From Rhodothermales bacterium (GTDB lineage: Bacteria > Bacteroidota > Rhodothermia > Rhodothermales > VXPQ01): a DNA stretch of 64,000 nucleotides. The position numbers and the translations under genes are program-made. This document shows, one piece after another, positions 2,463 to 48,508 of this stretch; the first letter of the stretch is position 1, and each line of letters begins with the position of its first letter. Below the pieces are notes generated by a model. The model worked only from the letters and a program-made list of their open reading frames with translations. It was not told the origin of the DNA and made no database searches. Where the stretch lies: the NCBI GenBank assembly GCA_965223485.1, contig OZ244993.1:74958-138957 (forward strand), given 5' to 3'.

Positions 2463-4172
2463 ATGACGAAATCTCTTTGGGACGAATACCTCGCGGCGGC
2501 GCAAGAGAAATACGAAACGATCAAGCGGGAAGAAAACTACAAGTTCAATCTTGCGGCGGCGTTAGCGAAAGCCCGCACGGCGTTGTTGCGCGATGAACCG
2601 GATTGGCCGGACCTGGCGACGGGGGCGGTCAGGCACAAGCACAACAATCTTATACACTGGATGAACCAAGGGAAGGTAGTGCGGTGTATCGCCAGCAACC
2701 CGGACGAGGTGCGGGATGCGCTTCGGGAAATGTGGTCCGAAGACGACCGAACGCCCGGCGACCGCATTCGCGCATTCGACGACAGACTATCCGAAAGCAT
2801 GCTGGATATTCCGCCGAGCGCGGTGGGCTCGCGCCTCACGATCGCGTCGTATTTCATGATGGGGCTCGACGCGCAACGGTATCCGCCGTACCAGAAAAGA
2901 AAGTTTCAATCCACATATAAACAACTGGACTATCCGCAATCCTCCGCCGACGATGCGGGCGAGGAGTACGAGCACGCCCTAAGCTTCCTGGACCGCATGC
3001 TCGAAGAAGCGCGGAGGCGGGACATGGACAAACCCGCTACCCGGATGGACGCGCAATCCGTCGTCTTCTGGCTGGTTAATCCACCTCCTCCACCCCCCAA
3101 TGGTACCCCAGTTGAACCCCCGCACCCCCTGAACACGATCCTCTACGGCCCGCCCGGCACCGGAAAGACCTGGCACACCGTCACCCGGGCCGTGGCGATC
3201 ATCGAAAACCTGGAAACGGACGAGGTAGCGCGGGAGAACCGCAGCGACGTGAAAGAAAGGTACGACATATATTCGGACGCCGAACAGATCGAAATGGTGA
3301 CGTTTACCCAGAACACCACCTACGAAGATTTCGTCGAAGGCATCCGGCCCGTCCTGTCGAATGGCGCAAGCGCCGACGGGCAATCTTCGCCCGAACACAG
3401 CGAGTCCGGAGACATCCGATATGAGCTTTCCCAAGGCGTATTCCGGGGCATCGCGGAGCGCGCGGAGAAGAACCCGAACCGGCCTTATGTGCTCGTCATC
3501 GACGAAATCAACCGCGGCAACATAGCCCGGATCTTCGGCGAACTGATCACACTGGTCGAGGACTCGAAGCGGATCGGGAAGCCCGACGAAGCCCGGGTGA
3601 GGCTACCCGGCTCGAAGACGGATTTTGGCGTGCCGTCGAACTTGTATCTCATCGGGACCATGAACACCGCCGACCGCTCCATCGCGCTGATGGATACTGC
3701 GCTACGGAGGCGGTTCGCGTTCGAGGAGATGATGCCGGACCCGTCTCATGATGGCGTCAACAAGGACATCGACGGCATCGACTGCGGCAAGGTCCTTGAC
3801 GCCATAAATGGACGCATCGCCGTGCTGCTGGACCGGGAGCATCAAATCGGACACACCTATTTCCTCGGCATCGACTCGATGGCAGCGCTTGCCGAGACGT
3901 TTCGGCGCCGCATCATGCCGCTACTCCAGGAGTACTTCTACGACGACTGGGAAAAAATCCGGGCGGTTCTGAACAACAACGAGTTCGTCGTGAGCCGGGA
4001 TCTGCCTGACGAGCTGGTCCGACGGGATCTGGTCGAATCCACCCGGAGAGTATACGATCTGCTGCCTGCCGACCACAAAAAGTGGACCGATCCGGCGGCG
4101 TACCGAGTTATCTACGAAACGCCCACAGCGGCGGCGGAAACGGACGACGACAGTGAATCGCAGCGCGACTGA
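2463..4172 (+). CDS. mcrB: McrB-family AAA+ GTPase of a type IV restriction system
   Basis: Walker A GPPGTGKT, Walker B LVIDEINRGN, McrB signature MNTADRS, ALRRRFAF, IGHTYF, PLLQEYFY; N-terminal ~205 aa domain separated by a poly-Pro linker. Confidence 0.93.
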   Translation: MTKSLWDEYLAAAQEKYETIKREENYKFNLAAALAKARTALLRDEPDWPDLATGAVRHKHNNLIHWMNQGKVVRCIASNPDEVRDALREMWSEDDRTPGDRIRAFDDRLSESMLDIPPSAVGSRLTIASYFMMGLDAQRYPPYQKRKFQSTYKQLDYPQSSADDAGEEYEHALSFLDRMLEEARRRDMDKPATRMDAQSVVFWLVNPPPPPPNGTPVEPPHPLNTILYGPPGTGKTWHTVTRAVAIIENLETDEVARENRSDVKERYDIYSDAEQIEMVTFTQNTTYEDFVEGIRPVLSNGASADGQSSPEHSESGDIRYELSQGVFRGIAERAEKNPNRPYVLVIDEINRGNIARIFGELITLVEDSKRIGKPDEARVRLPGSKTDFGVPSNLYLIGTMNTADRSIALMDTALRRRFAFEEMMPDPSHDGVNKDIDGIDCGKVLDAINGRIAVLLDREHQIGHTYFLGIDSMAALAETFRRRIMPLLQEYFYDDWEKIRAVLNNNEFVVSRDLPDELVRRDLVESTRRVYDLLPADHKKWTDPAAYRVIYETPTAAAETDDDSESQRD

Positions 4173-5559: not shown

Positions 5560-5635
5560 TGGAGCCAACGACCGGACTTGAACCGGTGACCTGCTCATTA
5601 CGAGTGAGCTGCTCTACCAACTGAGCTACGTTGGC
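5560..5635 (-). tRNA. tRNA-Thr(CGT)
   Basis: Minus strand reads GCCAACGTAGCTCAGTTGGTAGAGCAGCTCACTCGTAATGAGCAGGTCACCGGTTCAAGTCCGGTCGTTGGCTCCA: 76 nt, D-loop, anticodon CGT, GTTCAA T-loop, encoded CCA. Confidence 0.97.
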
Positions 5636-5831
5636 CGGTACATGCGTCGCTTGCGACGAAGCGCCCCTCTCACGCATGACCTTTCGACTTGATCCCGGCA
5701 TGATTCATAGTACCGGACTGCCCTGAACATCTTCCGGGAAGCACGCCGGTCCACATGAAACGCAATGTATTTCCAGGCGTTTGCGTGTACCTTGCGCATG
5801 CCTCGCCGTGTATCCCTGCATCTCATCGGAC

Positions 5832-7202
5832 GTGTCCCTGTCCCCTTCCATAACAGATTGGAGTCCCGCGTCCTGGCGAGAGCGGCCTGCGATGCAGCAA
5901 CCCACGTACCGCGATCAGGCCGAATTGTCCGAAGCGCTGGCGAAGTTACATGCTTTGCCCCCGCTCGTGACATCCTGGGAAATCCATGTGCTCAAGAAAC
6001 AGATTGCCGAAGCGACGCAAGGGCAGCGTTTTATCCTGCAGGGCGGCGAATGCGCGGAACACTTCGACGAATGCAGCGCGCAGATTATCGCCAATCGTCT
6101 GAAGGTGCTTCTTCAGATGAGCCTCGTACTGATCTTCGGGATCCGGACACGCGTCGTGCGGATAGGCCGCTTTGCAGGCCAGCATGCCAAACCCCGCTCT
6201 TCCGATAGCGAAACCCGCGATGGAATAACGCTCCCGAGCTACCGGGGCGATATCGTCAACAGTGCAGATTTCACGCCCGAGGCGCGCGAGCCGGATCCCA
6301 AGCGGATGCTACGCGCCCATGCGCATTCCGCGATGACGCTGAATCTCGTCCGTGCGCTCATCAATACGGGCTTTGCGGATCTCCACCATCCGGAATACTG
6401 GAACCTCGATTTCATCCACCGTACGCCGCTGGAAAACGAATACCGGCAGATCCTCGAATCCATTCGCGAGACGGTTTCGTTCATTGAAACCGTCTCGGGC
6501 AACCCGCTTCACAGCCTGGAACGCACCCAGTTCTTCACCAGCCATGAAGCATTGCACCTGCCCTACGAAGAAGCCTTCACGCGCAACGTGCCGCACAATG
6601 AAGGCATATTCAATCTGGCAACCCACTTCCCGTGGATCGGCGCCAGAACTGCTGACTGCGAGGGAGCCCACATCGAATATGCGCGCGGCCTCGTCAATCC
6701 GATCGGCGTGAAAGTAGGACCCTTCATGTCGCCGGAGGATCTGGTGCGCATCGTACGAATCCTGAACCCCGAAAACGACCCCGGTCGACTCGTACTTATT
6801 CATCGTCTGGGCGCCGGCTGCATCGCCGATCTCCTGCCCCCCCTGATCCGGGCCGTGCAGGTTTCGGGCACGCCTGTGTTGTGGATGAGCGATCCCATGC
6901 ACGGAAATACTGAATTGACGGGTGCAGGCATCAAGACCCGGCGCTTCGAAAACATCCTGGACGAACTTGAACAGGCATTTGACATTCATGCTGCGGAGGG
7001 ATCGCATCTCGGCGGCGTGCATTTCGAACTCGCGGGAGAAGACGTTACCGAATGCACAGGCGGCGCAAGCGGCCTGGAGGACACCGATCTGGTACGCGCC
7101 TACAAATCGCAAGTCGACCCGCGGCTGAATTACGAACAAGCACTGGAAATGGCTTTTCTTATCGTGAGAAAGAAAAATCGCATGGAAAACAAATCGGCTT
7201 AA
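5832..7202 (+). CDS. Class II DAHP synthase (3-deoxy-7-phosphoheptulonate synthase)
   Basis: WSPASWR start, LQGGECAE, RIGRFAGQHAKPRS, SYRGDIVN, SHEALHLPYE, WIGART, DPMHGNT, DPRLN; GTG start at 5832 inferred. Confidence 0.95.
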   Translation: MSLSPSITDWSPASWRERPAMQQPTYRDQAELSEALAKLHALPPLVTSWEIHVLKKQIAEATQGQRFILQGGECAEHFDECSAQIIANRLKVLLQMSLVLIFGIRTRVVRIGRFAGQHAKPRSSDSETRDGITLPSYRGDIVNSADFTPEAREPDPKRMLRAHAHSAMTLNLVRALINTGFADLHHPEYWNLDFIHRTPLENEYRQILESIRETVSFIETVSGNPLHSLERTQFFTSHEALHLPYEEAFTRNVPHNEGIFNLATHFPWIGARTADCEGAHIEYARGLVNPIGVKVGPFMSPEDLVRIVRILNPENDPGRLVLIHRLGAGCIADLLPPLIRAVQVSGTPVLWMSDPMHGNTELTGAGIKTRRFENILDELEQAFDIHAAEGSHLGGVHFELAGEDVTECTGGASGLEDTDLVRAYKSQVDPRLNYEQALEMAFLIVRKKNRMENKSA

Positions 7203-37655: not shown

Positions 37656-39719
37656 ATGAAATACCTCATCGTCCTCTTTTTCTGCGTTTGCGCATTAGAG
37701 AATGTGCAAGCGCAATCACTGCTTGTTGTTTGCGCAGACCCCGGCTCGGTCTACGAGGGTTCGGCGGACTTTTCTCTGGATTGCTCGGCTTCGGGCGCTC
37801 CGGGCGCCAATCCTGTCTACACGTACGCCTGGACGGCGCGGGGCAGTACGGCGAACATGGGCCTGTTGAGTGCGACGGACATCCCTTCTCCGACCTTCAA
37901 CGTGCCGGATCAGGTGGACAGCGACCAAACCTACGAATATCTGCTGACCGTCTCTGCGGAAAATGCAGACGACGCGGCGGCGGAGGTGACGGTGACGGTG
38001 TTGAACAGAAGTACAGGTCCAGGTCCAGGCACAGGCGCACTGAGCGTTGTTTGCGCAGACCCCGGCTCGGTCTACGAGGGTTCGGGGGGCTTTTCTCTGG
38101 ATTGCTCGGCTTCGGGCGCTCCTTCGGGCGTCGCCTACGCATACTCGTGGGCGGCGCGGGGAAGTACGGCGAACACATCGCGACTTAGCGCGACGGACAT
38201 CCTCAGACCGACCTTCTACGTGCCGGATCAGGTGGACAGCGACCAAACCTACGAATATCTGCTGACCGTCTCTGCGGAAAACGCGGAATCCGCGACGGCG
38301 GAGGTGACGGTGACGGTGTTGAACAGAAGTACAGGTCCAGGTCCAGGCACAGGCGCACTGAGCGTTGTTTGCGCAGACCCCGGCTCGGTCTACGAGGGTT
38401 CGCCGGACTTTTTTCTGGATTGCTCGGCTTCGGGGGCTCCTTCGGGCGTCGCCTATAGGTATGTGTGGGCGGCGCGGGGCAGTACGGCGAACACGAGCCT
38501 GTTGAGTGCTGCGGACATCCTCAGGCCGACCTTCTACGTGCCGTATCAGGTGGACAGCGACCAAACCTACGAATATCTGCTGACCGTCTCGGCGGAAAAT
38601 GCAGACGACGCGGCGGCGGAGGTGACGGTGACGGTGTTGAACAGAAGTACAGGTCCAGGTCCAGGCACAGGCGCACTGAGCGTTGTTTGCGCAGACCCCG
38701 GCTCGGTCTACGAGGGTTCGCCGGACTTTTCTCTGGATTGCTCGGCTTCGGGGGCTCCTTCGGGCGTCGCCTATAGGTATGTGTGGGCGGCGCGGGGCAG
38801 TACGGCGAACACATCGCGACTTAGCGCGACGGACATCCTCAGACCGACCTTCTACGTGCCGGATCAGGTGGACAGCGACCAAACCTACGAATATCTGCTG
38901 ACCGTCTCTGCGGAAAACGCAGACGACGCGGCGGCGGACGTTACGGTGACGGTGCTTGATTTCCACAAACCCGGCTCCATAGAAGAAGACAGGTTAGCGC
39001 TTGAAGCATTGTACGATTCGACGAACGGCGATAACTGGATCGACAATACCAACTGGAAAAGCGACAAGCCAGTGCAGGAATGGTATGGCGTGTCCGTTGA
39101 TTTTGATGATGGGCGCATACGTGCCCTGAATCTGGATGGAAACGGATTATCCGGAAATATTCCTTCCGGGTTGGGCAATATGGGGGGATTACAGCGCCTA
39201 TCCTTACGGGAAAACAACTTGACGGGGAGTATTCCCTCGGGAATGAGCAATCTTAAGAATTTGGATTCCTTGAATCTTGCCGATAATTACCTGACGGGAA
39301 CCATTCCTGAATCCTTCATCGATCTTTCGCTGACGCTGTTTCATATCGGAGGTACAAATACCCTTACGGTACCTTCGTCCCTGATACCGTGGTATAACTC
39401 CATAAGCAATACGGATACGGAAGCGCCAACAGCCAGCGAACCCGCAGAACTTCCTGCAACACTTACGTTAGGCGGCAATTATCCCAACCCCTTCAATCCT
39501 GCGACAACTATCGAATATGCGCTCCCCGCAACAGACCATGTACGCCTCGCGGTGTACGATATGGCTGGAAGAACGGTCTCAGTGCTCGTGGACGGGGTGC
39601 GAATTCAGGGGCAACACGCGGTGCGCTTCAATGCTTATGGTCTACCGGCGGGTACATATGTATACCGCTTGCAGGCTGCCGGAACAACGCGGATACGAAA
39701 GATGACCTTGGTAAAGTAA
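37656..39719 (+). CDS. T9SS-secreted surface protein: four Ig/PKD-like repeats, plant-type LRR region, C-terminal sorting domain
   Basis: Signal peptide; four ~106-aa repeats; ALEALYDSTNGDNW...WYGV LRR cap and LxLxxNxLSGxIP repeats; CTD NYPNPFNP...VYDMAGR...LPAGTYVYRL...KMTLVK. Confidence 0.9.
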   Translation: MKYLIVLFFCVCALENVQAQSLLVVCADPGSVYEGSADFSLDCSASGAPGANPVYTYAWTARGSTANMGLLSATDIPSPTFNVPDQVDSDQTYEYLLTVSAENADDAAAEVTVTVLNRSTGPGPGTGALSVVCADPGSVYEGSGGFSLDCSASGAPSGVAYAYSWAARGSTANTSRLSATDILRPTFYVPDQVDSDQTYEYLLTVSAENAESATAEVTVTVLNRSTGPGPGTGALSVVCADPGSVYEGSPDFFLDCSASGAPSGVAYRYVWAARGSTANTSLLSAADILRPTFYVPYQVDSDQTYEYLLTVSAENADDAAAEVTVTVLNRSTGPGPGTGALSVVCADPGSVYEGSPDFSLDCSASGAPSGVAYRYVWAARGSTANTSRLSATDILRPTFYVPDQVDSDQTYEYLLTVSAENADDAAADVTVTVLDFHKPGSIEEDRLALEALYDSTNGDNWIDNTNWKSDKPVQEWYGVSVDFDDGRIRALNLDGNGLSGNIPSGLGNMGGLQRLSLRENNLTGSIPSGMSNLKNLDSLNLADNYLTGTIPESFIDLSLTLFHIGGTNTLTVPSSLIPWYNSISNTDTEAPTASEPAELPATLTLGGNYPNPFNPATTIEYALPATDHVRLAVYDMAGRTVSVLVDGVRIQGQHAVRFNAYGLPAGTYVYRLQAAGTTRIRKMTLVK
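37725..38956 (+). repeat. Four intragenic tandem repeats (321/318/318 bp spacing)
   Basis: Units start GTTGTTTGCGCAGACCCCGGCTCGGTCTACGAGGG at 37725, 38046, 38364 and 38682. Confidence 0.97.
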
Positions 39720-39897: not shown

Positions 39898-40259
39898 GGG
39901 GATGACATGGTTTCGACGGGTGGTATTCGCGCTGCAAGTTGCGTGTCGAGCTCCTCAGTCCAGCTCGTTAATATGACTGGGAACCGGTAAATGCGAACGA
40001 TTACTCGTACGCGATGGCGGCGTAAGCCCCATCTGTCCAATGCGCTGCTTGTTCATCGGCGCGCATTCGGGCACCGACTCAGATGAACCCGCTGCGGCCC
40101 GTACCGGCTGAACAGGTCGCAGTCAAAACAATCAGCCTTTGCTTGCATCAAGCCCTTGTCGGGCGGCTCTCGATGCGAGTGAGCACGAAAGACCGACTAC
40201 ACACGTAGACGCTTGTCGGTACGACCATTCGGACGCGGGTTCGACTCCCGCCATCTCCA
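39898..40259 (+). ncRNA. ssrA: tmRNA
   Basis: 5' GGGGATGACATGGTTTCGAC; 3' GCGGGTTCGACTCCCGCCATCTCCA; acceptor pairing GGGGATG/CATCTCC; tag frame 39993-40025 = ANDYSYAMAA-stop. Confidence 0.96.
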
Positions 40260-40444
40260 CTATAGTATGCCGGGAAGTATGGAAGCGGATCACGGGATTT
40301 TTCCAATTCGCTTCTTCGGTTTTTCGAACGGGTAAGGTTATATTACGGCCGCGTGCGTGTCTTGTACCTGTTGCCGGGAATCACCGCCCGCATTTTTTTT
40401 TGCTTTGGTCATGGAAGTGGGTTGAAATCGAAGCGAAATCGATT

Positions 40445-40915: not shown

Positions 40916-40920
40916 CGGCT

Positions 40921-41821
40921 ACCCCACATCTCCTGTCGAATACTCCCCACGCCGTCCGGCGAGTTGACGAGACTTTGTCGTCGTTTCGGTTTGAAGAATC
41001 TCTGTTATGGCGTTAGTTTATGGGCCGAAAGCAAACGGGTGTTTCCGAACACAAGGGGATACCCTCTTTGGAGTCTGGACAAGATTTTAAGACAACGAAT
41101 GGCAGACGAGAGAATTACCGAACTCGAACGACAGATCGGCGAGTTGACAGCGGAACTCAACACCCTGCGAAAGACCAGCCCGGGGACGCCTGTCCGCAAT
41201 TACACCTTTGCGACGCTGACCGGCGATACGACGCTGCTCGACCTGTTCGGCGAAAAGGACAAGCTACTTGCGATCCACAACATGGGGCAGGGCTGCCGCT
41301 ATTGTACACTATGGGCGGACGGCTTCAACGGATTGCTTGCCCATCTGGAGTCGGCCTTGTCCGTAGTGCTCCTCTCGAAGGACCCGCCGGAAACACAGCG
41401 CCGATTCGCCAATGTCCGCGGTTGGCGGTTTCGGCTGGCCTCGCACGGCGGCGGGGACTACATTCGTGAGCAATCCGTCGTAAACGGCCAAAACAACTAC
41501 CCTGGCGCCGTGGTCTACGAACGCGACGGCGACGCCATTCTGCGCAAGAACGCGTGCGTGTTCGGCCCCGGCGACATCTATTGCGCGATGTGGAGCCTGC
41601 TCGGCCTCGCGGGGCTTGGCGAAAAGGATTGGACCCCCCAATACGCTTATTGGAGCCGCCCGGGCAAGTTGGACGACGGCGGCTTGAACGTGCTCGAATA
41701 GTGTCGCTGCGTCCCGTGCGGTTCGCCCAGGTAAACCGGGGTGTTGGGTATGAGGCGACCGGGAAGGCGGCGCTGCTTCACTCCGCCGTGTCACCCCACA
41801 TCTCCTGTTGAATACTCCCCA
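40921..41821. repeat. 29-bp direct repeat pair (40921-40949 and 41793-41821) flanking the DUF899 gene
   Basis: ACCCCACATCTCCTGT(C/T)GAATACTCCCCA, 28/29 identical; both copies encode GEYSTGDVG-stop on the minus strand. Confidence 0.9.
41099..41701 (+). CDS. DUF899 family thioredoxin-like protein
   Basis: TLLDLFGEKDKLLAIHNMGQGCRYCTLWADGFNG (CxxC), LLSKDPP, GWRFRLAS. Confidence 0.8.
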   Translation: MADERITELERQIGELTAELNTLRKTSPGTPVRNYTFATLTGDTTLLDLFGEKDKLLAIHNMGQGCRYCTLWADGFNGLLAHLESALSVVLLSKDPPETQRRFANVRGWRFRLASHGGGDYIREQSVVNGQNNYPGAVVYERDGDAILRKNACVFGPGDIYCAMWSLLGLAGLGEKDWTPQYAYWSRPGKLDDGGLNVLE

Positions 41822-43386
41822 TCCACAAGGCGCCGGACGCCGCGCTCGTTACGGTCGCGCAGTTCCGGGGGCAATGCGGACGAGGGAAAATCCTGCCAGG
41901 CCGCGGGCCGCACGAACCGTTGAATGGCGGTGTCGCCCACAGCCCCTGTGCGTATGTCGGTCGTGGCCGGATAGGGGCCGCCATGGTGCATGGCCGGGCA
42001 TACTTCCACGCCCGTCGGGAATCCGTTGAAAATGAACCGGCCCGCCTTGCGCCGCAATGCACGAACGAGGCCGTCATGCCGGGCAATATCTTCCTCATCG
42101 CCGTGGATCGCCGCGGTGAGTTGCCCTTTCAGTCTGTGGGCAACCTGCTCGAGCTCAGCAGTATCCCGGGCAACCACGACAAGGCTCGACGGCCCGAACA
42201 CTTCTTCGGACAGCATATCGTTCGCCAGGAAGGTCTGCACATCCGTGCGGAAGAGTGCTCCTCCGCCCTCCGTGCGCGCGGGATCCGCCTCCTTTTCCGA
42301 AGCCGCCACGCGCTGGACTCCTTGCGCAGCAGCCAACCGGTCGGCGCCGGCGCAGAACCGGTCGCGTATGCCCCGGTGGAGCATCGACGCCGGTTCGGCC
42401 CGGCGGATGTGCTCACCCAAGGCCCGCAGGAAGGTTTCCATCGCTTCCCCGGCGACCCCGAACACCAGTCCAGGATTCGTGCAGAACTGCCCGACCCCCA
42501 GCAGGATCGACCCCGCCAGTTTTTCGGCAAGGGCCTCTGCCCCGTTCTCCAACGCGGAAGGCAGAATGAACACCGGATTGACGCTCCCCATCTCGGCGTA
42601 CACCGGAATCGGTATGGGACGCGCCGCCGCCGCATCGAAAAGCGCGCGTCCTCCCTGGAGCGATCCGGTGAAGCCCACCGCCTGCACCAGCGGGCGCCGC
42701 ACCAGCCCGAGTCCGACCTCGTAGCCTTGTCCATGCAATAGTGAAAACACGCCGGCGGGCATCTTTCCGGCCTCGGCGGCCCGGAGGATAGCCCGGGCCA
42801 CCAGCTCGGACGTGCCGGGATGCGCCGGATGCGCCTTGCAGATTACCGGGCAACCTGCGGCCAGCGCAGAAGCGGTGTCGCCCCCCGCCACCGAATAGGC
42901 CAGCGGAAAGTTGCTGGCCCCGAATACGGCCACCGGCCCGAGGGGCACGTACATGCGGCGCAGGTCGGGTTTGGGATGAGGCGTACGATCCGGCACAGCA
43001 CGGTCGATGCGGGCGTCCACCCACGATCCTTCCCGCACGACGGCGGCAAAGAGCCGCAACTGATACACGGTGCGGCCTCGTTCTCCCCGGATCCGGCCCT
43101 CCGGAAGCCCCGTTTCCCGGTGGGCGCGTTCGACCAGTGTGTCGCCGAGACCCTCGATCTCCGCTGCAATACGCTCCAGAAAAACCGCCCGGTGGGCGGG
43201 TTCGGTGGCCGCATAGGCGTCGAAAGCGGCCTCGGCGGCTTCGGCGGCAGCGTCGATGTCGGCAGAGGAAGCCTCGCAAAACACGGGATCAAGGCCAGCA
43301 CTCTGTACCGGATCCCAGGCGCGGAAGCCTTCTGTATTCTCGCCGTTCGTCCAGCCTGCAATAAGATGTTTACCGGAAAGAGTCAT
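41791..43386 (-). CDS. NADP-dependent aldehyde dehydrogenase (2,5-dioxopentanoate/KGSA dehydrogenase-like)
   Basis: PLGPVAVFGASNFPLAYSVAGGDTASALAAGCPV, GFTGS, AEMGSVNP, GQFCTNPG, EEVFGP, GFPTGVEV, HGGPYPATT. Confidence 0.93.
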   Translation of the reverse strand: MTLSGKHLIAGWTNGENTEGFRAWDPVQSAGLDPVFCEASSADIDAAAEAAEAAFDAYAATEPAHRAVFLERIAAEIEGLGDTLVERAHRETGLPEGRIRGERGRTVYQLRLFAAVVREGSWVDARIDRAVPDRTPHPKPDLRRMYVPLGPVAVFGASNFPLAYSVAGGDTASALAAGCPVICKAHPAHPGTSELVARAILRAAEAGKMPAGVFSLLHGQGYEVGLGLVRRPLVQAVGFTGSLQGGRALFDAAAARPIPIPVYAEMGSVNPVFILPSALENGAEALAEKLAGSILLGVGQFCTNPGLVFGVAGEAMETFLRALGEHIRRAEPASMLHRGIRDRFCAGADRLAAAQGVQRVAASEKEADPARTEGGGALFRTDVQTFLANDMLSEEVFGPSSLVVVARDTAELEQVAHRLKGQLTAAIHGDEEDIARHDGLVRALRRKAGRFIFNGFPTGVEVCPAMHHGGPYPATTDIRTGAVGDTAIQRFVRPAAWQDFPSSALPPELRDRNERGVRRLVDGEYSTGDVG

Positions 43387-43519
43387 GGTGGAGGCAATTT
43401 TTCTGCGTATCTAATCAGAGGAGATGGGAAGACTACCGGCAAACGGAGGGGTCCGTAAAAGCTGGGCAATCTTATATAATGTACTATTGCGTTAGGTCAT
43501 GCCGCCCTGATCAGCGATT

Positions 43520-43572
43520 TTCGTTTGTAGAATACGTGGTCGGAGGTGCGACTGTCAAGCGCTTGGCAAGGA
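43520..43572 (-). promoter_or_regulatory. Promoter-containing repeat, copy 1 (downstream of the methyltransferase, facing the aldehyde dehydrogenase)
   Basis: Minus strand TTGACA (43558-43553), 18-nt spacer, TATTCT (43534-43529); 41/53 identical to 46769-46821. Confidence 0.7.
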
Positions 43573-43671
43573 TGTTCCTCGTTGAAATAGCGCAGGTAGT
43601 TAACGATGGACGGCATCCCGTAAACTGCGTAAGTGGTCATTCGTACACAGTTAAGCGGACACGCCCCACGA

Positions 43672-45873
43672 TTAGCGAATATCTTTGACAGCGCTTGCAT
43701 CGTAGACGCTTCGTCGGGGAACAACCCCGGCTGGAGTAATCTTCACTCGAGTTGAAGGGGTCTTCATAATTTCGTCATGTAGCGACGAAAGGCGCTCCAG
43801 GATATCCTCGTAGGCAAGAGATTGCCCCCCTGTATTGATAAGCATCTGCGCTGCTGCAATGACAAACCTGTCGCTACGCGATATCGAAATATTGAATGCT
43901 GCGAGTTTGGTCGCGAGATGCTCAGACTGATCGATCGGCGAGCAAGTGAGTTTCTTGCCCAGGGTCAACGTCTCGCGCTTCCTGCAAACGAGAATCGCGT
44001 CCAGACTGATAGGATCCTTCGTGGCCGACTTCGAACTCGATGCTCGAAATTCTGCGTGGACGGGATAAGAAGCAACAACGACAAGACCAGCGTCTTTGAT
44101 CGCCTGATAGATCGAAGCCCAGCCATCGGCCCGTGAGTGATGGAAGCTGAAAGTAAGCACTCCGTATGGTTTGAGGACACGATGACACTCGGAAAAGACA
44201 CGAGCAAGTTGTCGAGAGAAGGATTGCGGATCTCTGTGCTGTACTTCTCCCTGGTCAGAGCAATCCGGGCGATCCATCCATGGGTATCGGTCGGCAAGAA
44301 CTGGAGACAACCATGCGAAGAAAAAGTCGCTCAATTCGCTGTAGTGGACAAAATCGAAGTACGGAGGATCAGTGACTACTGCGTCGACGGACCCGTCGGG
44401 GATGGGCAGCGATGCACTGTCGCCATTGAGGACCATAACGGAATGGGGGGTTTCCTGAAGATCTGACCAATTGCTTACACACTTCGGATTGAGCGACGCG
44501 CTTGAGACAGACTTGCGCGTTCCGCAGCGTTGACCGAAAAGGTCGTGCTGAAGCTGAATCTCAAACGGAACGTCAAGGTAACGCTTTGCTCGCACGAGAC
44601 GGGATTCAAATAGCGTGCAGAACGTACCGCTACTTTTGTTAGTGCCCCAAACCGAGTTTTCAAGCGGTGTTCGTTCCGGCTTAAGGATGTGGTGTGAGAA
44701 CATATGGCGGACAGCACCGGTGCCTTCGCCTTTGTAACTGCAGAAAAGGTTATTGAACTCAAGGGTACTCGAGAACAAGCAGAGCATTTGTTCCTGTATG
44801 CACTTATCCTTGATCTCAAGGATTTTGCGTAATAGCATGCCTAGGCAAAGAAGCTGTCTGGCGTTAAAAAAATCTCTCCAATACAGATAGTTGTAGCCCC
44901 GTGCCTGGTTAGTATTATATCCGGGGCGAACTCGAAGAGTTGGAAGCGGCAGATTCTCTTCGCTGAGCCTGATCTCGGCTTCCGCATAGAGCACTTGGTC
45001 TTCCGGTCGCGCGGCAAGATAGATCTTCTCGCCATTCGGTCGCAGGGCTAACATCGCGTAGAGCCGGTGGCTCAGCGGTGTGCCATCGGTCGGCAGAAGC
45101 TCTCTGATTTTGTGCTTCAAGCCGTCCGGTGCAGTTACGTATTGTCCTTTGGCAGGACCAGCCTGCGGATTGAAATGATGTTCGCAGTACGGGCAGTCCA
45201 GAGATGTAAGATCGTATCGGCTCTCGATAACCTCCCAACAGTTTGGGCATATTACTTGTGCGCAAGGCTCTTTCTTTGGATAGGCGTTCTGCGCAAAAAC
45301 GTAACGCGAGAAAAGAGGAATGACATCACCCCGACGCGTAGTAACCGTCTTGCACCAGAAGTAGTATAGGACAGGGATCAATTCGCCGCTTTCAGGATCT
45401 CGGGTCTGATAGTAGTGCCGGATATCCGGTGCAACTTCCGCCTCGATCTTTGCGAAAGCATCACGAAGTTGTGCTTCTGGAACCTGTGTGAATGCTTGGC
45501 GCACAAGAAATGTACTTACCGGATTAATGTCACTACCTATAGCCCGCGCGCCTAGTTTGAGCGCCTCTCCAAGAGTTGTCCCGCTTCCCATGAAAGGATC
45601 AAGAACTACCTTGCCGGACAGATTGTGTCGGTCGTAAAAACGCTCCCAGATATCCGTGTTGCTCTCGGCGAGTGCACCTATAATAATGCCGCGAAAGACC
45701 GAACCCAATCGCCTTGCCCACCATTTGTGGATGTGATAGAGTGGACGGTTAATTTCCTTACGCCAGCTTTCCTGCTGGGCCAATTCGCTGATCTCGAGTA
45801 CTGGAAATCCCGTTTCCAGCGCCGTCACACGGTCGTTGTTCTTTTTCCGGGGACTTGCGCGATGCTTGCCCAT
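43672..45873 (-). CDS. DUF1156-type amino (m6A/m4C) DNA methyltransferase with Zn-ribbon insert
   Basis: HIHKWWARRLGSVFR N-terminus; motif I VLDPFMGSGTT; CPNC...CPYC; motif IV VVTDPPYFD; VLTFSFHH. Confidence 0.88.
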   Translation of the reverse strand: MGKHRASPRKKNNDRVTALETGFPVLEISELAQQESWRKEINRPLYHIHKWWARRLGSVFRGIIIGALAESNTDIWERFYDRHNLSGKVVLDPFMGSGTTLGEALKLGARAIGSDINPVSTFLVRQAFTQVPEAQLRDAFAKIEAEVAPDIRHYYQTRDPESGELIPVLYYFWCKTVTTRRGDVIPLFSRYVFAQNAYPKKEPCAQVICPNCWEVIESRYDLTSLDCPYCEHHFNPQAGPAKGQYVTAPDGLKHKIRELLPTDGTPLSHRLYAMLALRPNGEKIYLAARPEDQVLYAEAEIRLSEENLPLPTLRVRPGYNTNQARGYNYLYWRDFFNARQLLCLGMLLRKILEIKDKCIQEQMLCLFSSTLEFNNLFCSYKGEGTGAVRHMFSHHILKPERTPLENSVWGTNKSSGTFCTLFESRLVRAKRYLDVPFEIQLQHDLFGQRCGTRKSVSSASLNPKCVSNWSDLQETPHSVMVLNGDSASLPIPDGSVDAVVTDPPYFDFVHYSELSDFFFAWLSPVLADRYPWMDRPDCSDQGEVQHRDPQSFSRQLARVFSECHRVLKPYGVLTFSFHHSRADGWASIYQAIKDAGLVVVASYPVHAEFRASSSKSATKDPISLDAILVCRKRETLTLGKKLTCSPIDQSEHLATKLAAFNISISRSDRFVIAAAQMLINTGGQSLAYEDILERLSSLHDEIMKTPSTRVKITPAGVVPRRSVYDASAVKDIR

Positions 45874-45876
45874 GCC

Positions 45877-46680
45877 TCAACCCCTATTAGTATTAGGTAA
45901 CATGGACACTTCCTTGTCCACCTGATTCTCAAGCCGATAAGCGATGAAGCGGTGTTCCATGCCTGCACGCGGATTGGGCACAAGCTCGGCTGTGAGCTCA
46001 TTGGTCCGAAGATCGAATTTGTACGCCACGACGAGTTCTGCCGCTTCGGTTCGAGTAAGACCCCCCACCTTTCGAAAATTACCCGGAGCCTCCGTGTTTT
46101 CGGGAACGATAAGTGTCATAAGCCCGGTAGCACCTTCCGTAAGAGCAAAAGGCGTGGGAGCAACATACATCTTTCGATCACGGATCATGATATCACCGTA
46201 GGTGCCGAAGCCTTTCACATTCTTATTTTGGTGACTGTATTCGTGATCAGCATTGAGAAAATTTCCGTGGCAGATCACCAGATCCACGACAGGGTACTTG
46301 CGACGACCACTGCCGATATCTTCGTATGGATCGAGGTCAGCGGGGTAGCGTCCGAAAACGTAAAAAATGCTGCGACCGTTGTGAAAGCCGGTTGGCACTT
46401 GGCTGTTGGAATCATAGTTGCGTTCGCGACCAGGCCAAGCCAGCCCCTTGATTTCATAGCCCTCGGTATATTCGACGAGAGAAAAATCGGGGTAACTATT
46501 CCGACCGCCAGGCTCGAAGTGCAATTTAAGTTGCCTAAGACGAGCCTGAAACCAATTCTGGAAATGAAATTCCTTGTCTCTGGGGCTGACTGACTCGATA
46601 AGCTCGCCAGCGTTGACTGCTTGGACACACTGCTCGAAAACCGCGAAGCAAGTTGTCGATTTATTCATCGGATCTGGCAT
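45877..46680 (-). CDS. Putative type II restriction endonuclease (PD-(D/E)xK fold)
   Basis: NSYPDFSL...GYEIKG catalytic pattern; stop lies 3 bp before the methyltransferase start; AT-richer than flanks. Confidence 0.65.
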   Translation of the reverse strand: MPDPMNKSTTCFAVFEQCVQAVNAGELIESVSPRDKEFHFQNWFQARLRQLKLHFEPGGRNSYPDFSLVEYTEGYEIKGLAWPGRERNYDSNSQVPTGFHNGRSIFYVFGRYPADLDPYEDIGSGRRKYPVVDLVICHGNFLNADHEYSHQNKNVKGFGTYGDIMIRDRKMYVAPTPFALTEGATGLMTLIVPENTEAPGNFRKVGGLTRTEAAELVVAYKFDLRTNELTAELVPNPRAGMEHRFIAYRLENQVDKEVSMLPNTNRG

Positions 46681-46768
46681 TCAGTCTGGATGCAAAGAAA
46701 AGATTTTAAACCTGGACAGTGCCTTAAGTGTCCCGTTGCGGTGATTTTTTGAGATCTGGCCAGTAGTC

Positions 46769-46821
46769 TTCGTTCGCAGAATACATCGTCGGGTCTGCGT
46801 TTGTCAAGCCATTGGCGAGGA
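46769..46821 (-). promoter_or_regulatory. Promoter-containing repeat, copy 2 (upstream of the nuclease-methyltransferase operon)
   Basis: Minus strand TTGACA (46807-46802), 18-nt spacer, TATTCT (46783-46778). Confidence 0.7.
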
Positions 46822-46885
46822 GTTCTTTTTTGAAGTAGCCTATAAGTCCAAAAAAATATCCCGCCTTCCATCTTCCGTCCCCCCC

Positions 46886-48508
46886 TCACCGAACCGGCAC
46901 ATCGTACTGCTCTTTCAGGCGCGCCAGTTCTTCCCGAAGGTACGTGATCGTTTCGGTGTATGCGCGGTTGCCGTACACGTTGCGGAGTTCGTCCGGGTCG
47001 GCTTCGAGATCGAATAACTCCCACTGATCCAGCGTGTAGTAATGGATCAGTTTGTGCCGGGCGGTGCGCACCCCTTCGTGCGGGTGGACGTGATGGGGCT
47101 GCGGAAATTCGTAGTAGTGGTAGTAGACGGATTCGCGCCAGTCTTCAGGGGTTTCTCCCTTGAGAAGCGGCACGAAGCTGCGACCCTGCATCGGCGAGGA
47201 GGGCTCCACGCCGGCCATATCCAGCAGGGTCTGCGCAAGATCGAGGTTCTGTACGAGAGCCTTGTTTTCGGACCCGGGCTGCACGATGCCGGGCCAGCGC
47301 ACGATGAGCGGCGCCTTGAACGATTCCTCGTACATCCACCGCTTGTCGTACCACCCCTTCTCCCCGAGGAAGAACCCCTGGTCCGAGTTGTATACGACGA
47401 TGGTGTTTTCGGCCAGGCCGGTCTCTTCGAGGTAATCCAGCAGGCGCCCGATGTTTTCGTCCATCGAATAAACGGTGCGGAGATAATCCTTAAGGTATCG
47501 CTGGTATTTCCAGCGAATCAGGTCGCGTTCCTGCAGGCCTCCCACGCGATACCGCTCGTAGAACGTATCGTTCTTCGGGCCGTAGGCTGCCTCCCACGCA
47601 GCTCGCTGGGCCGGGGTAAAGCGGTCGATCCAATAGTATCCCTCGGCGACCTCGTCGAGATGTTCGGGGTTCAGGGGGAGTTTCAGGTCCCACCCCCAGC
47701 GCAGGTCCGTGGAAATTTCCATCTCCTGTAATACGGCAGGCGTCGAAAGGCCGGAATAATCATAGAACAGGGAGCGCGGCGCGGGGATTTCCACGTCGTC
47801 GTAGCGGTTCAGATGCGTCGGACCAGGCAGCCAGTTGCGGTGCGGAGCCTTGTGCTGGTACATCAGCATAAAAGGTTCGTCGGTATCCCGCCCGTTTTCG
47901 AGCCACTCAAGCGCCCGGTCCGTCACGATGTCGCTGACGTAGCCTTCATAGTTCGTATCCCCCTCCTGCGTTCGAAACGCCGGGTTGTAATAATCTCCCT
48001 GCCCGGGCAGCACTTCCCAGTAGTCGAACCCCCGGGGATTGCTCTTCAGATGCCACTTTCCGATAATGGCTGTCCGGTAGCCTCCCTGCTGGAGCATTTC
48101 CGGAAAAACAGGAATGGATGCTTCAAGGCTGTCATGCCGCGCATTCGTTTCTACGCCGTTCAGGTGGCTGTGCAGGCCGGACAGAATGACCGCCCGGCTG
48201 GGCGCGCAAATCGAGTTCGTCACGAAGGCGTTCCGAAACAGCATCCCCTCGTTCGCGAGGCGGTCGAGATTGGGGGTGGGATCGACGGCGGCAAGGCGGC
48301 CCCCATACGCGCCAAGCGCCTGCGTCGCATGATCGTCCGAAAAGATGAAGACGATATTGGGACGTTCGGCGGGCTGCGCCGAGACGGGCGAAACGACGAC
48401 TGTTGCGCCGGCAAACATCCACAGGCACAAAAACCGGATCGGGACGGGAATCCGGACGCATGAATGCAGGCACAGAATGGATGGACGTGTCAACGTAGGC
48501 AGTTTCAT
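46886..48508 (-). CDS. Formylglycine-dependent sulfatase (family S1)
   Basis: RPNIVFIFSDDH, CAPSRA (CxPxR), GKWHL, HKAPH, SDQGFFLGEKGW, MYEES, ELFDLEADPDE; exact start uncertain. Confidence 0.95.
   Translation of the reverse strand: MKLPTLTRPSILCLHSCVRIPVPIRFLCLWMFAGATVVVSPVSAQPAERPNIVFIFSDDHATQALGAYGGRLAAVDPTPNLDRLANEGMLFRNAFVTNSICAPSRAVILSGLHSHLNGVETNARHDSLEASIPVFPEMLQQGGYRTAIIGKWHLKSNPRGFDYWEVLPGQGDYYNPAFRTQEGDTNYEGYVSDIVTDRALEWLENGRDTDEPFMLMYQHKAPHRNWLPGPTHLNRYDDVEIPAPRSLFYDYSGLSTPAVLQEMEISTDLRWGWDLKLPLNPEHLDEVAEGYYWIDRFTPAQRAAWEAAYGPKNDTFYERYRVGGLQERDLIRWKYQRYLKDYLRTVYSMDENIGRLLDYLEETGLAENTIVVYNSDQGFFLGEKGWYDKRWMYEESFKAPLIVRWPGIVQPGSENKALVQNLDLAQTLLDMAGVEPSSPMQGRSFVPLLKGETPEDWRESVYYHYYEFPQPHHVHPHEGVRTARHKLIHYYTLDQWELFDLEADPDELRNVYGNRAYTETITYLREELARLKEQYDVPVR

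Follow-up and report, generated by a model that had tools for sequence, protein, structure and literature searches.

Probable remnants of IS3-family right ends flank a putative restriction-modification gene pair in an uncultured Rhodothermales bacterium, and the upstream one may have been kept as a promoter

The window analysed here is a stretch of 64 kb from contig OZ244993.1 of an uncultured Rhodothermales bacterium. Between a sulfatase gene and an aldehyde dehydrogenase (ALDH) gene it carries genes for a candidate nuclease and for a DNA methyltransferase (MTase), and this pair lies between two direct repeats, termed R1 (downstream) and R2 (upstream). An earlier note on this DNA had taken the repeats for promoter-bearing handles by which defence cassettes are exchanged. 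Our analysis instead points to dead right-hand ends of an insertion sequence (IS) of the IS3 family that flank a foreign restriction-modification (R-M) pair, with the upstream relic retained as a promoter and the whole arrangement arising by an IS-mediated route. We give this reading a probability of about 80%. On the minus strand the order is sulfatase, R2, an open reading frame (ORF) of 263/267 amino acids (aa), the 733-aa MTase, R1 and ALDH:

46886-48508, minus strand: sulfatase, 540 aa (Pfam Sulfatase and SGSH_C), the native upstream neighbour.
46696-46845, minus strand: R2, probable upstream relic of an IS3-family right end (blastn, tblastn and alignment with three intact IS ends).
45877-46668, minus strand: candidate restriction endonuclease, 263 aa (linkage to the MTase and an invariant motif).
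43672-45873, minus strand: DNA methyltransferase, 733 aa, of the DUF1156 / N6_N4_Mtase type (Pfam PF01555, PADLOC).
43446-43610, minus strand: R1, probable downstream relic of an IS3-family right end (tblastn, blastn and alignment).
41791-43386, minus strand: ALDH, 531 aa, 2,5-dioxovalerate / alpha-ketoglutarate-semialdehyde dehydrogenase-like (Pfam Aldedh, 7e-45).
43446-46885, minus strand: the entire insertion of R2, the two genes and R1, ~3.44 kb, as delimited against the empty spacer of relatives.

The repeat pair that the earlier note described is real. Positions 43520-43572 and 46769-46821 are identical at 41 of 53 positions in an ungapped alignment, against a top 53-mer match of at most 29 (mean 25.9) in a control of 40 shuffles of one intergenic region. 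A consensus pattern of the two copies, allowing up to three mismatches, occurs at these two sites only in the window, where 0 are expected, and no third copy in the window was found by an nhmmer profile. The length of 53 bp did not stand. When one indel is allowed the similarity extends over ~43446-43610 and ~46696-46845, about 150-165 bp per copy, with a mutual identity of ~66-73%. Both copies are in direct orientation and point in the same direction as the flanking genes. The claim that they bracket the gene pair exactly holds only roughly, as 28 nt separate the end of R2 from the start of the first gene and ~60 nt separate the MTase stop codon from R1.

Two other origins of the repeats were considered and rejected. 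A live small gene shared by R1 and R2 does not fit, since mismatches between the copies are not enriched at third codon positions; the 75-aa ORF at 43497-43724 is the R1 relic frame continuing into the end of the MTase gene. A tRNA or attachment-site origin does not fit either, since no tRNA or Rfam match lies in or near the repeats. The only RNAs in the window are a transfer-messenger RNA (tmRNA, 39898-40262) and a tRNA-Thr (5560-5635).

In minus-strand translation R1 gives IVNYLRYFNEEHPCQALDSRTSDHVFYKRKSLIRAA and then a stop codon, the C-terminal hallmark of DDE transposases of the rve type. R1 comprises the last 36-37 codons of orfB in frame, a stop codon at 43497-43499 and a right inverted repeat (IRR) that ends at ~43446, where it adjoins CGTTTGCCGGTAG, a sequence native to the site in relatives. 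In R2 the last ~30 codons of orfB survive in frameshifted form, together with a degenerate IRR that ends at ~46696. For comparison, 175 loci (2.04 Mb) were fetched via the nuclease-like protein, the ALDH and the transposase; individual loci are given here by L numbers. A hidden Markov model of the relic, run over all of them, found nothing beyond the orthologous locus and intact copies of the IS, which it matched at their 3' ends. One such match is in a sister genome (L004), where a third match of the repeat profile overlaps the 3' end of an intact transposase gene.

Intact copies of the IS from two sister genomes (L087 and L088) allowed a direct comparison. The element is 1,282 bp long between its inverted repeats, as measured in L087. 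There, orfB matches rve (6.6e-23), rve_3, rve_2 and HTH_21 and has homologues named 'IS3 family transposase' by their source, and the upstream orfA encodes 97 aa with an HTH_Tnp_1 domain (2.8e-08). The order of the two ORFs, the HTH domain of orfA and the length of the element, which falls in the IS3-family range of ~1.2-1.55 kb, all agree with this family. The terminal inverted repeats of ~45 nt are imperfect (left, GAGGTGGTTCGGGTTGATTGGACAG…; reverse complement of the right, GAAGTGGTCCGAAAAAACTGGACAG…; ends placed to +/-5 nt). IS3-family elements have a programmed -1 frameshift between orfA and orfB, and a T-run, GATTTTTTATCG, is found near the end of orfA. No clean target duplication of 3-5 bp was readable around the intact IS.

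A tblastn search of the window with the C-terminus of the intact transposase had only two convincing matches, R1 at 69% identity over 36 aa (E=1e-11) and R2 at 43% over 30 aa. With the whole intact IS, blastn aligned R1 at 79% over 119 nt (E=3.6e-23) and R2 at 73.5% over 117 nt (to IS 1125-1241); these matches fall at about positions 1118-1241 of the 1,282 of the IS. Alignment with three intact IS ends showed that the homology continues past the stop codon into the IRR, from IS position ~1106/1119 to 1282. Nucleotide and translated homology are contiguous and colinear up to the IS terminus. R1 and R2 are therefore best described, on their sequence, as decayed right-hand ends of an IS3-family element, each consisting of the orfB tail, the stop region and the IRR.

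No IS homology was detected upstream of the relic start, apart from a marginal signal in L090 (p = 0.04). Other element types were rejected. Against a miniature inverted-repeat transposable element, matches to the left inverted repeat (IRL) of the IS upstream of both relics and of their orthologues do not rise above shuffled sequences (p = 0.18-0.96). Against a functional composite transposon, there is no transposase ORF and no IRL-like sequence upstream, and only the right boundary is an IS end; the insertion can at most be a decayed former composite transposon. Against an integron cassette, the repeats are directly oriented copies of part of a coding sequence and not of the attC type, and no integrase is present in the ORFs examined between sulfatase and ALDH, as the earlier note had observed, nor within +/-10 kb of the annotated sister loci.

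The promoter-like hexamers to which the earlier note had drawn attention are also present. TTGACA-N18-TATTCT occurs on the minus strand in both copies, each with 10 of 12 matches to the sigma70 consensus and with a spacer inside the 16-18 nt range of such promoters. In R2 the -35 TTGACA lies at 46802-46807 and the -10 TATTCT at 46778-46783; in R1, where they face ALDH, the -35 and -10 lie at 43553-43558 and 43529-43534. The intact ISs hold the same TTGACA-N18-TATTCT as codons (…G-L-D-N…D-V-F-Y), and the conservation of the hexamers between R1 and R2 is therefore primarily inherited. Within the element the hexamers face outward, ~95-125 nt from the IS end.

The evidence for a promoter function of R2 comes from its conservation between lineages. 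In an alignment of the sulfatase-nuclease spacer from four lineages (the window, L004, L091 and L090), 63.8% of 224 columns are invariant, and the two longest invariant runs, AATGGCTTGACAAACG and GTATTCTGCGAACGAAG, hold the -35 and the -10. Between the window and L090 identity is 95.7% in the hexamer block versus 69-71% on either side. R2 is frameshifted and under no coding constraint, so conservation of this block looks like regulatory selection and suggests that the R-M operon has taken over R2 as its promoter, one that stems from the IS and faces outward. R1, in turn, is dispensable, being half-deleted or lost in relatives. Of the earlier proposal that the repeats are promoters, the part concerning R2 is thus made plausible by the conserved hexamer block, and the notion of a purpose-built promoter element is not, the hexamers being inherited IS codons.

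Complete outward promoters at IS termini have been documented, the IS3 family included, and IS-driven expression of neighbouring genes, as in ISEcp1-blaCTX-M and ISAba1-ampC, has been confirmed experimentally for the IS3, IS4, IS5, IS6 and IS481 families (PMC9330008). As in those cases, a -35/-10 pair near the IS end would read through the inverted repeat into a gene that starts a few tens of nucleotides beyond it. Here, however, the IS is dead and reduced to ~150 bp, the promoter is proposed from sequence conservation, and the genes served would be an R-M pair, not a resistance gene, in a Rhodothermales bacterium that is uncultured.

The sulfatase-ALDH spacer is a variable spot among relatives. 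Sulfatase and ALDH stand 25-80 bp apart, with no relic between them, at six empty sites (L007, L008, L010, L173, L174 and L175). The R-M pair with both relics is present in the window, L001, L002, L004, L006 and L091, and also in L003 as far as its locus extends, which ends short of R1. L005 carries the pair with a truncated R1 whose 5' half is gone, and L090 carries it with R2 only, R1 having been lost along with ~40 nt of native sequence. L009 and L171 have no relic and hold other cargo at the site, an ORF of 325-327 aa for which neither Pfam nor PADLOC gives a family match. This alternative cargo lies at 7959-10000 in L009, together with small ORFs, and at 5745-7000 in L171, and a 232-bp remnant of it is found at 869-1100 of L172. 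A 12-nt match, AGCGCTTGACAG, was rejected as a relic in L009, L171 and L172 because it is not significant (p = 0.09-0.6). L009 and the window have ~37 nt after the sulfatase stop codon in common (p = 0.002), which the empty sites do not have. The sulfatase orthologues of L004-L010 and L171-L175 are 84-96% identical.

No target-site duplication around the whole insert could be called, since its junctions are rich in G and differ too much from one relative to the next. An imperfect inverted repeat, GGAAGATGGAAG … CTTCCCATCTCC, stands at the outer edges of the insertion (46845-46885 and 43426-43440) and may be due to chance; its right arm is native and is also found in the empty site L007.

The gene pair itself appears to be a horizontally acquired Type II-like R-M module, composed of a candidate endonuclease and a DUF1156/N6_N4 methyltransferase. 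The MTase matches PF01555 at 1.7e-16, with a Pfam DUF1156 match below threshold, and is assigned by PADLOC to DUF1156_MTase/PglX-like/MTase_II; the NCBIfam model DUF1156_antiphage is matched under its cut-off. Its translation holds FMGSGTT near residue 93 and DPPY near residue 502, the S-adenosylmethionine-binding and catalytic motifs of a Type II MTase, and this half of the nuclease and methyltransferase assignment made in the earlier note is well founded. The nuclease half is less secure. The mechanical call of the 263-aa ORF reaches 46680 (267 aa), and its relatives are called from the second ATG. The protein has no Pfam, NCBIfam or PADLOC family match, phmmer against the PDB gave chance-level matches only, and a Foldseek search of the PDB with its AlphaFold2 model (pLDDT 61, low confidence) gave nothing with E<0.1. 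It does contain an invariant PD…E-x-K-like motif, YPDF…EYTEGYEIKG, and we infer from this motif and from its linkage to the MTase that it is a putative nuclease. Its family may represent a PD-(D/E)xK restriction enzyme family that has not yet been described.

The R-M pair is foreign: its GC content differs from that of its surroundings, it occurs on a plasmid-like contig, and a sister genome has a further copy behind its tmRNA gene. The flanking genes have 60-69% GC and the DNA between the repeats 49-54% (~51% for the insertion as a whole), which bears out the earlier remark that the insert is AT-richer. On the plasmid-like contig (L089, with ParA, relaxase and coupling protein) the pair follows a ribbon-helix-helix gene. 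In L171 the second copy lies directly past the 3' end of the tmRNA gene, and homology to the window is confined to the two ORFs. Neither of these copies has the repeats.

More than 4,000 homologues of the 263-aa protein, 70-95% identical, are spread over distant phyla. Of 80 metagenome loci, 78 have the MTase gene directly after it in the same orientation, and the other two run off their contigs. A search of these 80 loci with the relic profile returned the orthologous locus (L091) only, leaving 79 unrelated contexts without a relic, and the relic consensus, sought as an exact pattern, had 0 matches in JGI metagenome contigs. The repeats are therefore peculiar to one Rhodothermales locus and do not belong to the mobile unit. 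In two other, unrelated metagenome loci the R-M pair lies between direct repeats of 165-215 bp that are at least 90% identical (L135, 2529-2743 / 5707-5923; L161, 1-165 / 3385-3549). A further partial copy of the repeat is found near each, which makes these repeats members of local families, and the L161 repeat looks coding.

How could such a structure arise? The starting point would be either a composite-like unit in which the R-M pair stood between two ISs or two IS insertions in the same orientation beside the cassette. The 5' ~1.1 kb of each IS would then have been lost, leaving the block of ~3.44 kb that lies in the former sulfatase-ALDH spacer of ~25-80 bp. These steps are less certain than the one that follows. 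Once the transposase was dead, R2 would have been kept for its outward promoter, which would serve the R-M operon; the first gene of the operon begins 28 nt beyond the IS end. R1 may likewise provide ALDH with a promoter since the insertion parted it from the sulfatase. Like any direct repeats, R1 and R2 could in principle permit loss or amplification of the cassette by RecA; no product of such an event was found.

An IS-mediated route is favoured because the right boundary of the insert coincides exactly with the IS end, because the IS is active in the clade and because peptide scores place each relic nearer to the intact IS than to its counterpart, a result that both origin models predict. 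It is also favoured because of its closest precedent. The PluTI R-M unit of Photorhabdus luminescens lies between direct repeats that belong to IS copies no longer functional, and its authors considered that it may be a composite transposon in decay (Khan et al. 2010, PMC2875022). Both cases have an R-M unit between direct repeats that are parts of dead ISs. The PluTI repeats, in contrast, are perfect, 16 bp long and located in two different remnants of the IS982 subfamily, whereas those described here are ~150-165 bp long, 66-73% identical and derived from the same IS3-family end. For PluTI no promoter role was proposed and no empty sites were available, whereas empty sites are available here.

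Several observations weigh against an IS-mediated origin and a promoter role of R2. Both relics are truncated near the same IS position (~1106-1119), which is unexpected for two independent deletions; such a shared point would agree with a single truncated relic having been duplicated, or with selection for the end that bears the promoter. Relative to the IS consensus the two relics have 10 derived bases in common, where ~3.4 are expected by chance, an excess that hints at a common source and is suggestive, not decisive. No IRL was found at the left boundary, and none of the loci showed an intermediate with an intact IS beside the cassette. R1, for its part, was lost in L090 and its 5' half in L005. 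The footprint comes from an alignment of four sequences, of which three are close, and covers hexamers that were chosen post hoc. The hexamers were also scored against a TTGACA/TATAAT-type consensus, which may not be that of the Rhodothermales RNA polymerase. Bacteroidota proper use another promoter consensus. A search of the literature on the promoter consensus of Rhodothermus gave nothing usable.

The shared truncation point and the shared derived bases are what a different origin would predict. In the class of long target duplications described by Nobusato, Furuta and Kobayashi, the R-M pair would have entered, or come to adjoin, a single pre-existing relic and copied ~150-165 bp of target. 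In this class the empty site holds one copy of the repeated sequence, and IS-linked cases were filtered out (PMC2853133). The resemblance is considerable, with an R-M pair that has no recombinase between conserved genes, long direct repeats, and empty or substituted sites in relatives. The truncation points of R1 and R2 are nearly identical, and of 15 sites changed in both relics relative to the IS, 10 carry the same base and 5 different ones (~3.4 same expected). The copies of the R-M pair between direct repeats in L135 and L161, and the neighbouring DUF899 gene, flanked by a duplicated ALDH 3' end, also speak for it. The defining empty site with one copy was sought among relatives and not found, however, as all six empty sites hold none and the repeat derives from a mobile element; a progenitor that bore the relic is possible. 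Moreover, the R1-R2 identity of ~66-73%, against 80-95% between orthologous copies of different lineages, would make the duplication far older than the lineage splits, yet the empty-site locus L007 nests among cassette carriers by flanking-gene identity, and both relics resemble the intact IS more than they resemble each other. We consider this origin unlikely; like the IS-mediated route, it is of a known kind.

A bolder version of the IS-derived reading would have the last ~150 bp of the dead element domesticated as a portable expression module and selected at both borders of the R-M pair. R2 would then express a promoterless R-M operon, R1 would re-express the cut-off ALDH, the truncation points would reflect the minimal unit, and the repeats would allow amplification or loss of the R-M pair. 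This is a tentative proposal, to which we assign a low probability.

The earlier note had gone further in another direction, taking the promoter-bearing repeat for a dedicated recombination handle by which defence cassettes are gained, lost or swapped, so that excision leaves a single promoter, in a cassette logic distinct from that of integrons. Direct repeats with outward-facing promoter-like hexamers do bracket the cassette, the site does vary among relatives (empty, R-M pair or 325-aa ORF), and no integrase was found within the insertion. As in an integron, promoterless cargo would lie under an upstream promoter and the cargo at one site varies; unlike in an integron, no IntI was found, there is no attI, and the repeats are direct gene fragments and not imperfect-palindrome attC sites. 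The handle itself turns out to be the 3' end of an IS3-family transposase gene with its IRR. Excision that leaves one promoter is contradicted by the empty sites, six of six of which hold no copy, and the expectation of other cargo between two copies by L009 and L171, whose cargo is not flanked by repeats. In addition, the motif is not found in the 79 unrelated metagenome contexts, in L089, at the second site of L171 or, as an exact pattern, in the JGI contigs, and R1 is decaying in L090 and L005 rather than being maintained. A recombination handle is accordingly very improbable, and no new cassette logic is needed, since IS decay around a mobile R-M pair accounts for the repeats. That R1 and R2 resemble each other by chance, or as members of a generic promoter family of the genome, can practically be dismissed: sigma70-like matches across the region are, as such a background would have it, not enriched (4 found against 3.1 expected), but 41 of 53 identities far exceed the shuffled maximum of 29, the pattern expectation is 0, and the two copies are the only ones in 64 kb and share homology far past the hexamers into the transposase gene.

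The surroundings of the locus show further variation. NCBIfam matches of ALDH, the native downstream neighbour, are all under their cut-offs. A DUF899 gene (40964-41701, plus strand) follows it, and a 30-nt direct repeat (40920-40949 / 41792-41821, 29 of 30 identical) places a duplicate of the last 10 ALDH codons beyond DUF899. In L004 and L171 the duplicated ALDH end extends further, to 24 and 26 aa, and L174 and L175 are without DUF899. The DUF899 gene has the look of an insertion that duplicated the 3' end of ALDH as its target. The tmRNA gene lies 1.5 kb from ALDH and ~700 bp from DUF899, and the stretch on its side in relatives (L171, 10160-13365; L173, 9567-15593; L174, 8684-13816) holds bacteriophage exclusion (BREX) genes (BrxL, PglZ, PglX-like) or the same nuclease-MTase pair, set directly past the tmRNA 3' end. 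This tmRNA-adjacent stretch is a second variable defence hotspot beside the locus. Further along, a 687-aa protein (37656-39719) has PKD-like and leucine-rich repeats and a C-terminal Por_Secre_tail, a type IX secretion sorting domain that fits a Rhodothermales/Bacteroidota-related origin. Its orthologue is present in L005 and missing at that position in L004 and L006.

The chief value of these results is a correction, in that an apparent system of promoter-bearing repeats and cassettes is explained by IS decay at a mobile R-M pair, and sigma70-like hexamers that are conserved between repeats can be merely inherited codons. IS relics that flank an R-M pair are an arrangement already known, and the modest twist here is the apparent retention of the upstream fragment as promoter of the cassette. 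The locus offers a natural example in which empty, filled, partly decayed and alternative-cargo states exist side by side among relatives, and in which an IS fragment has apparently outlived its transposase as a promoter. It also draws attention to a widespread, highly conserved and so far unannotated candidate family of restriction endonucleases that is almost always paired with a DUF1156-type methyltransferase.

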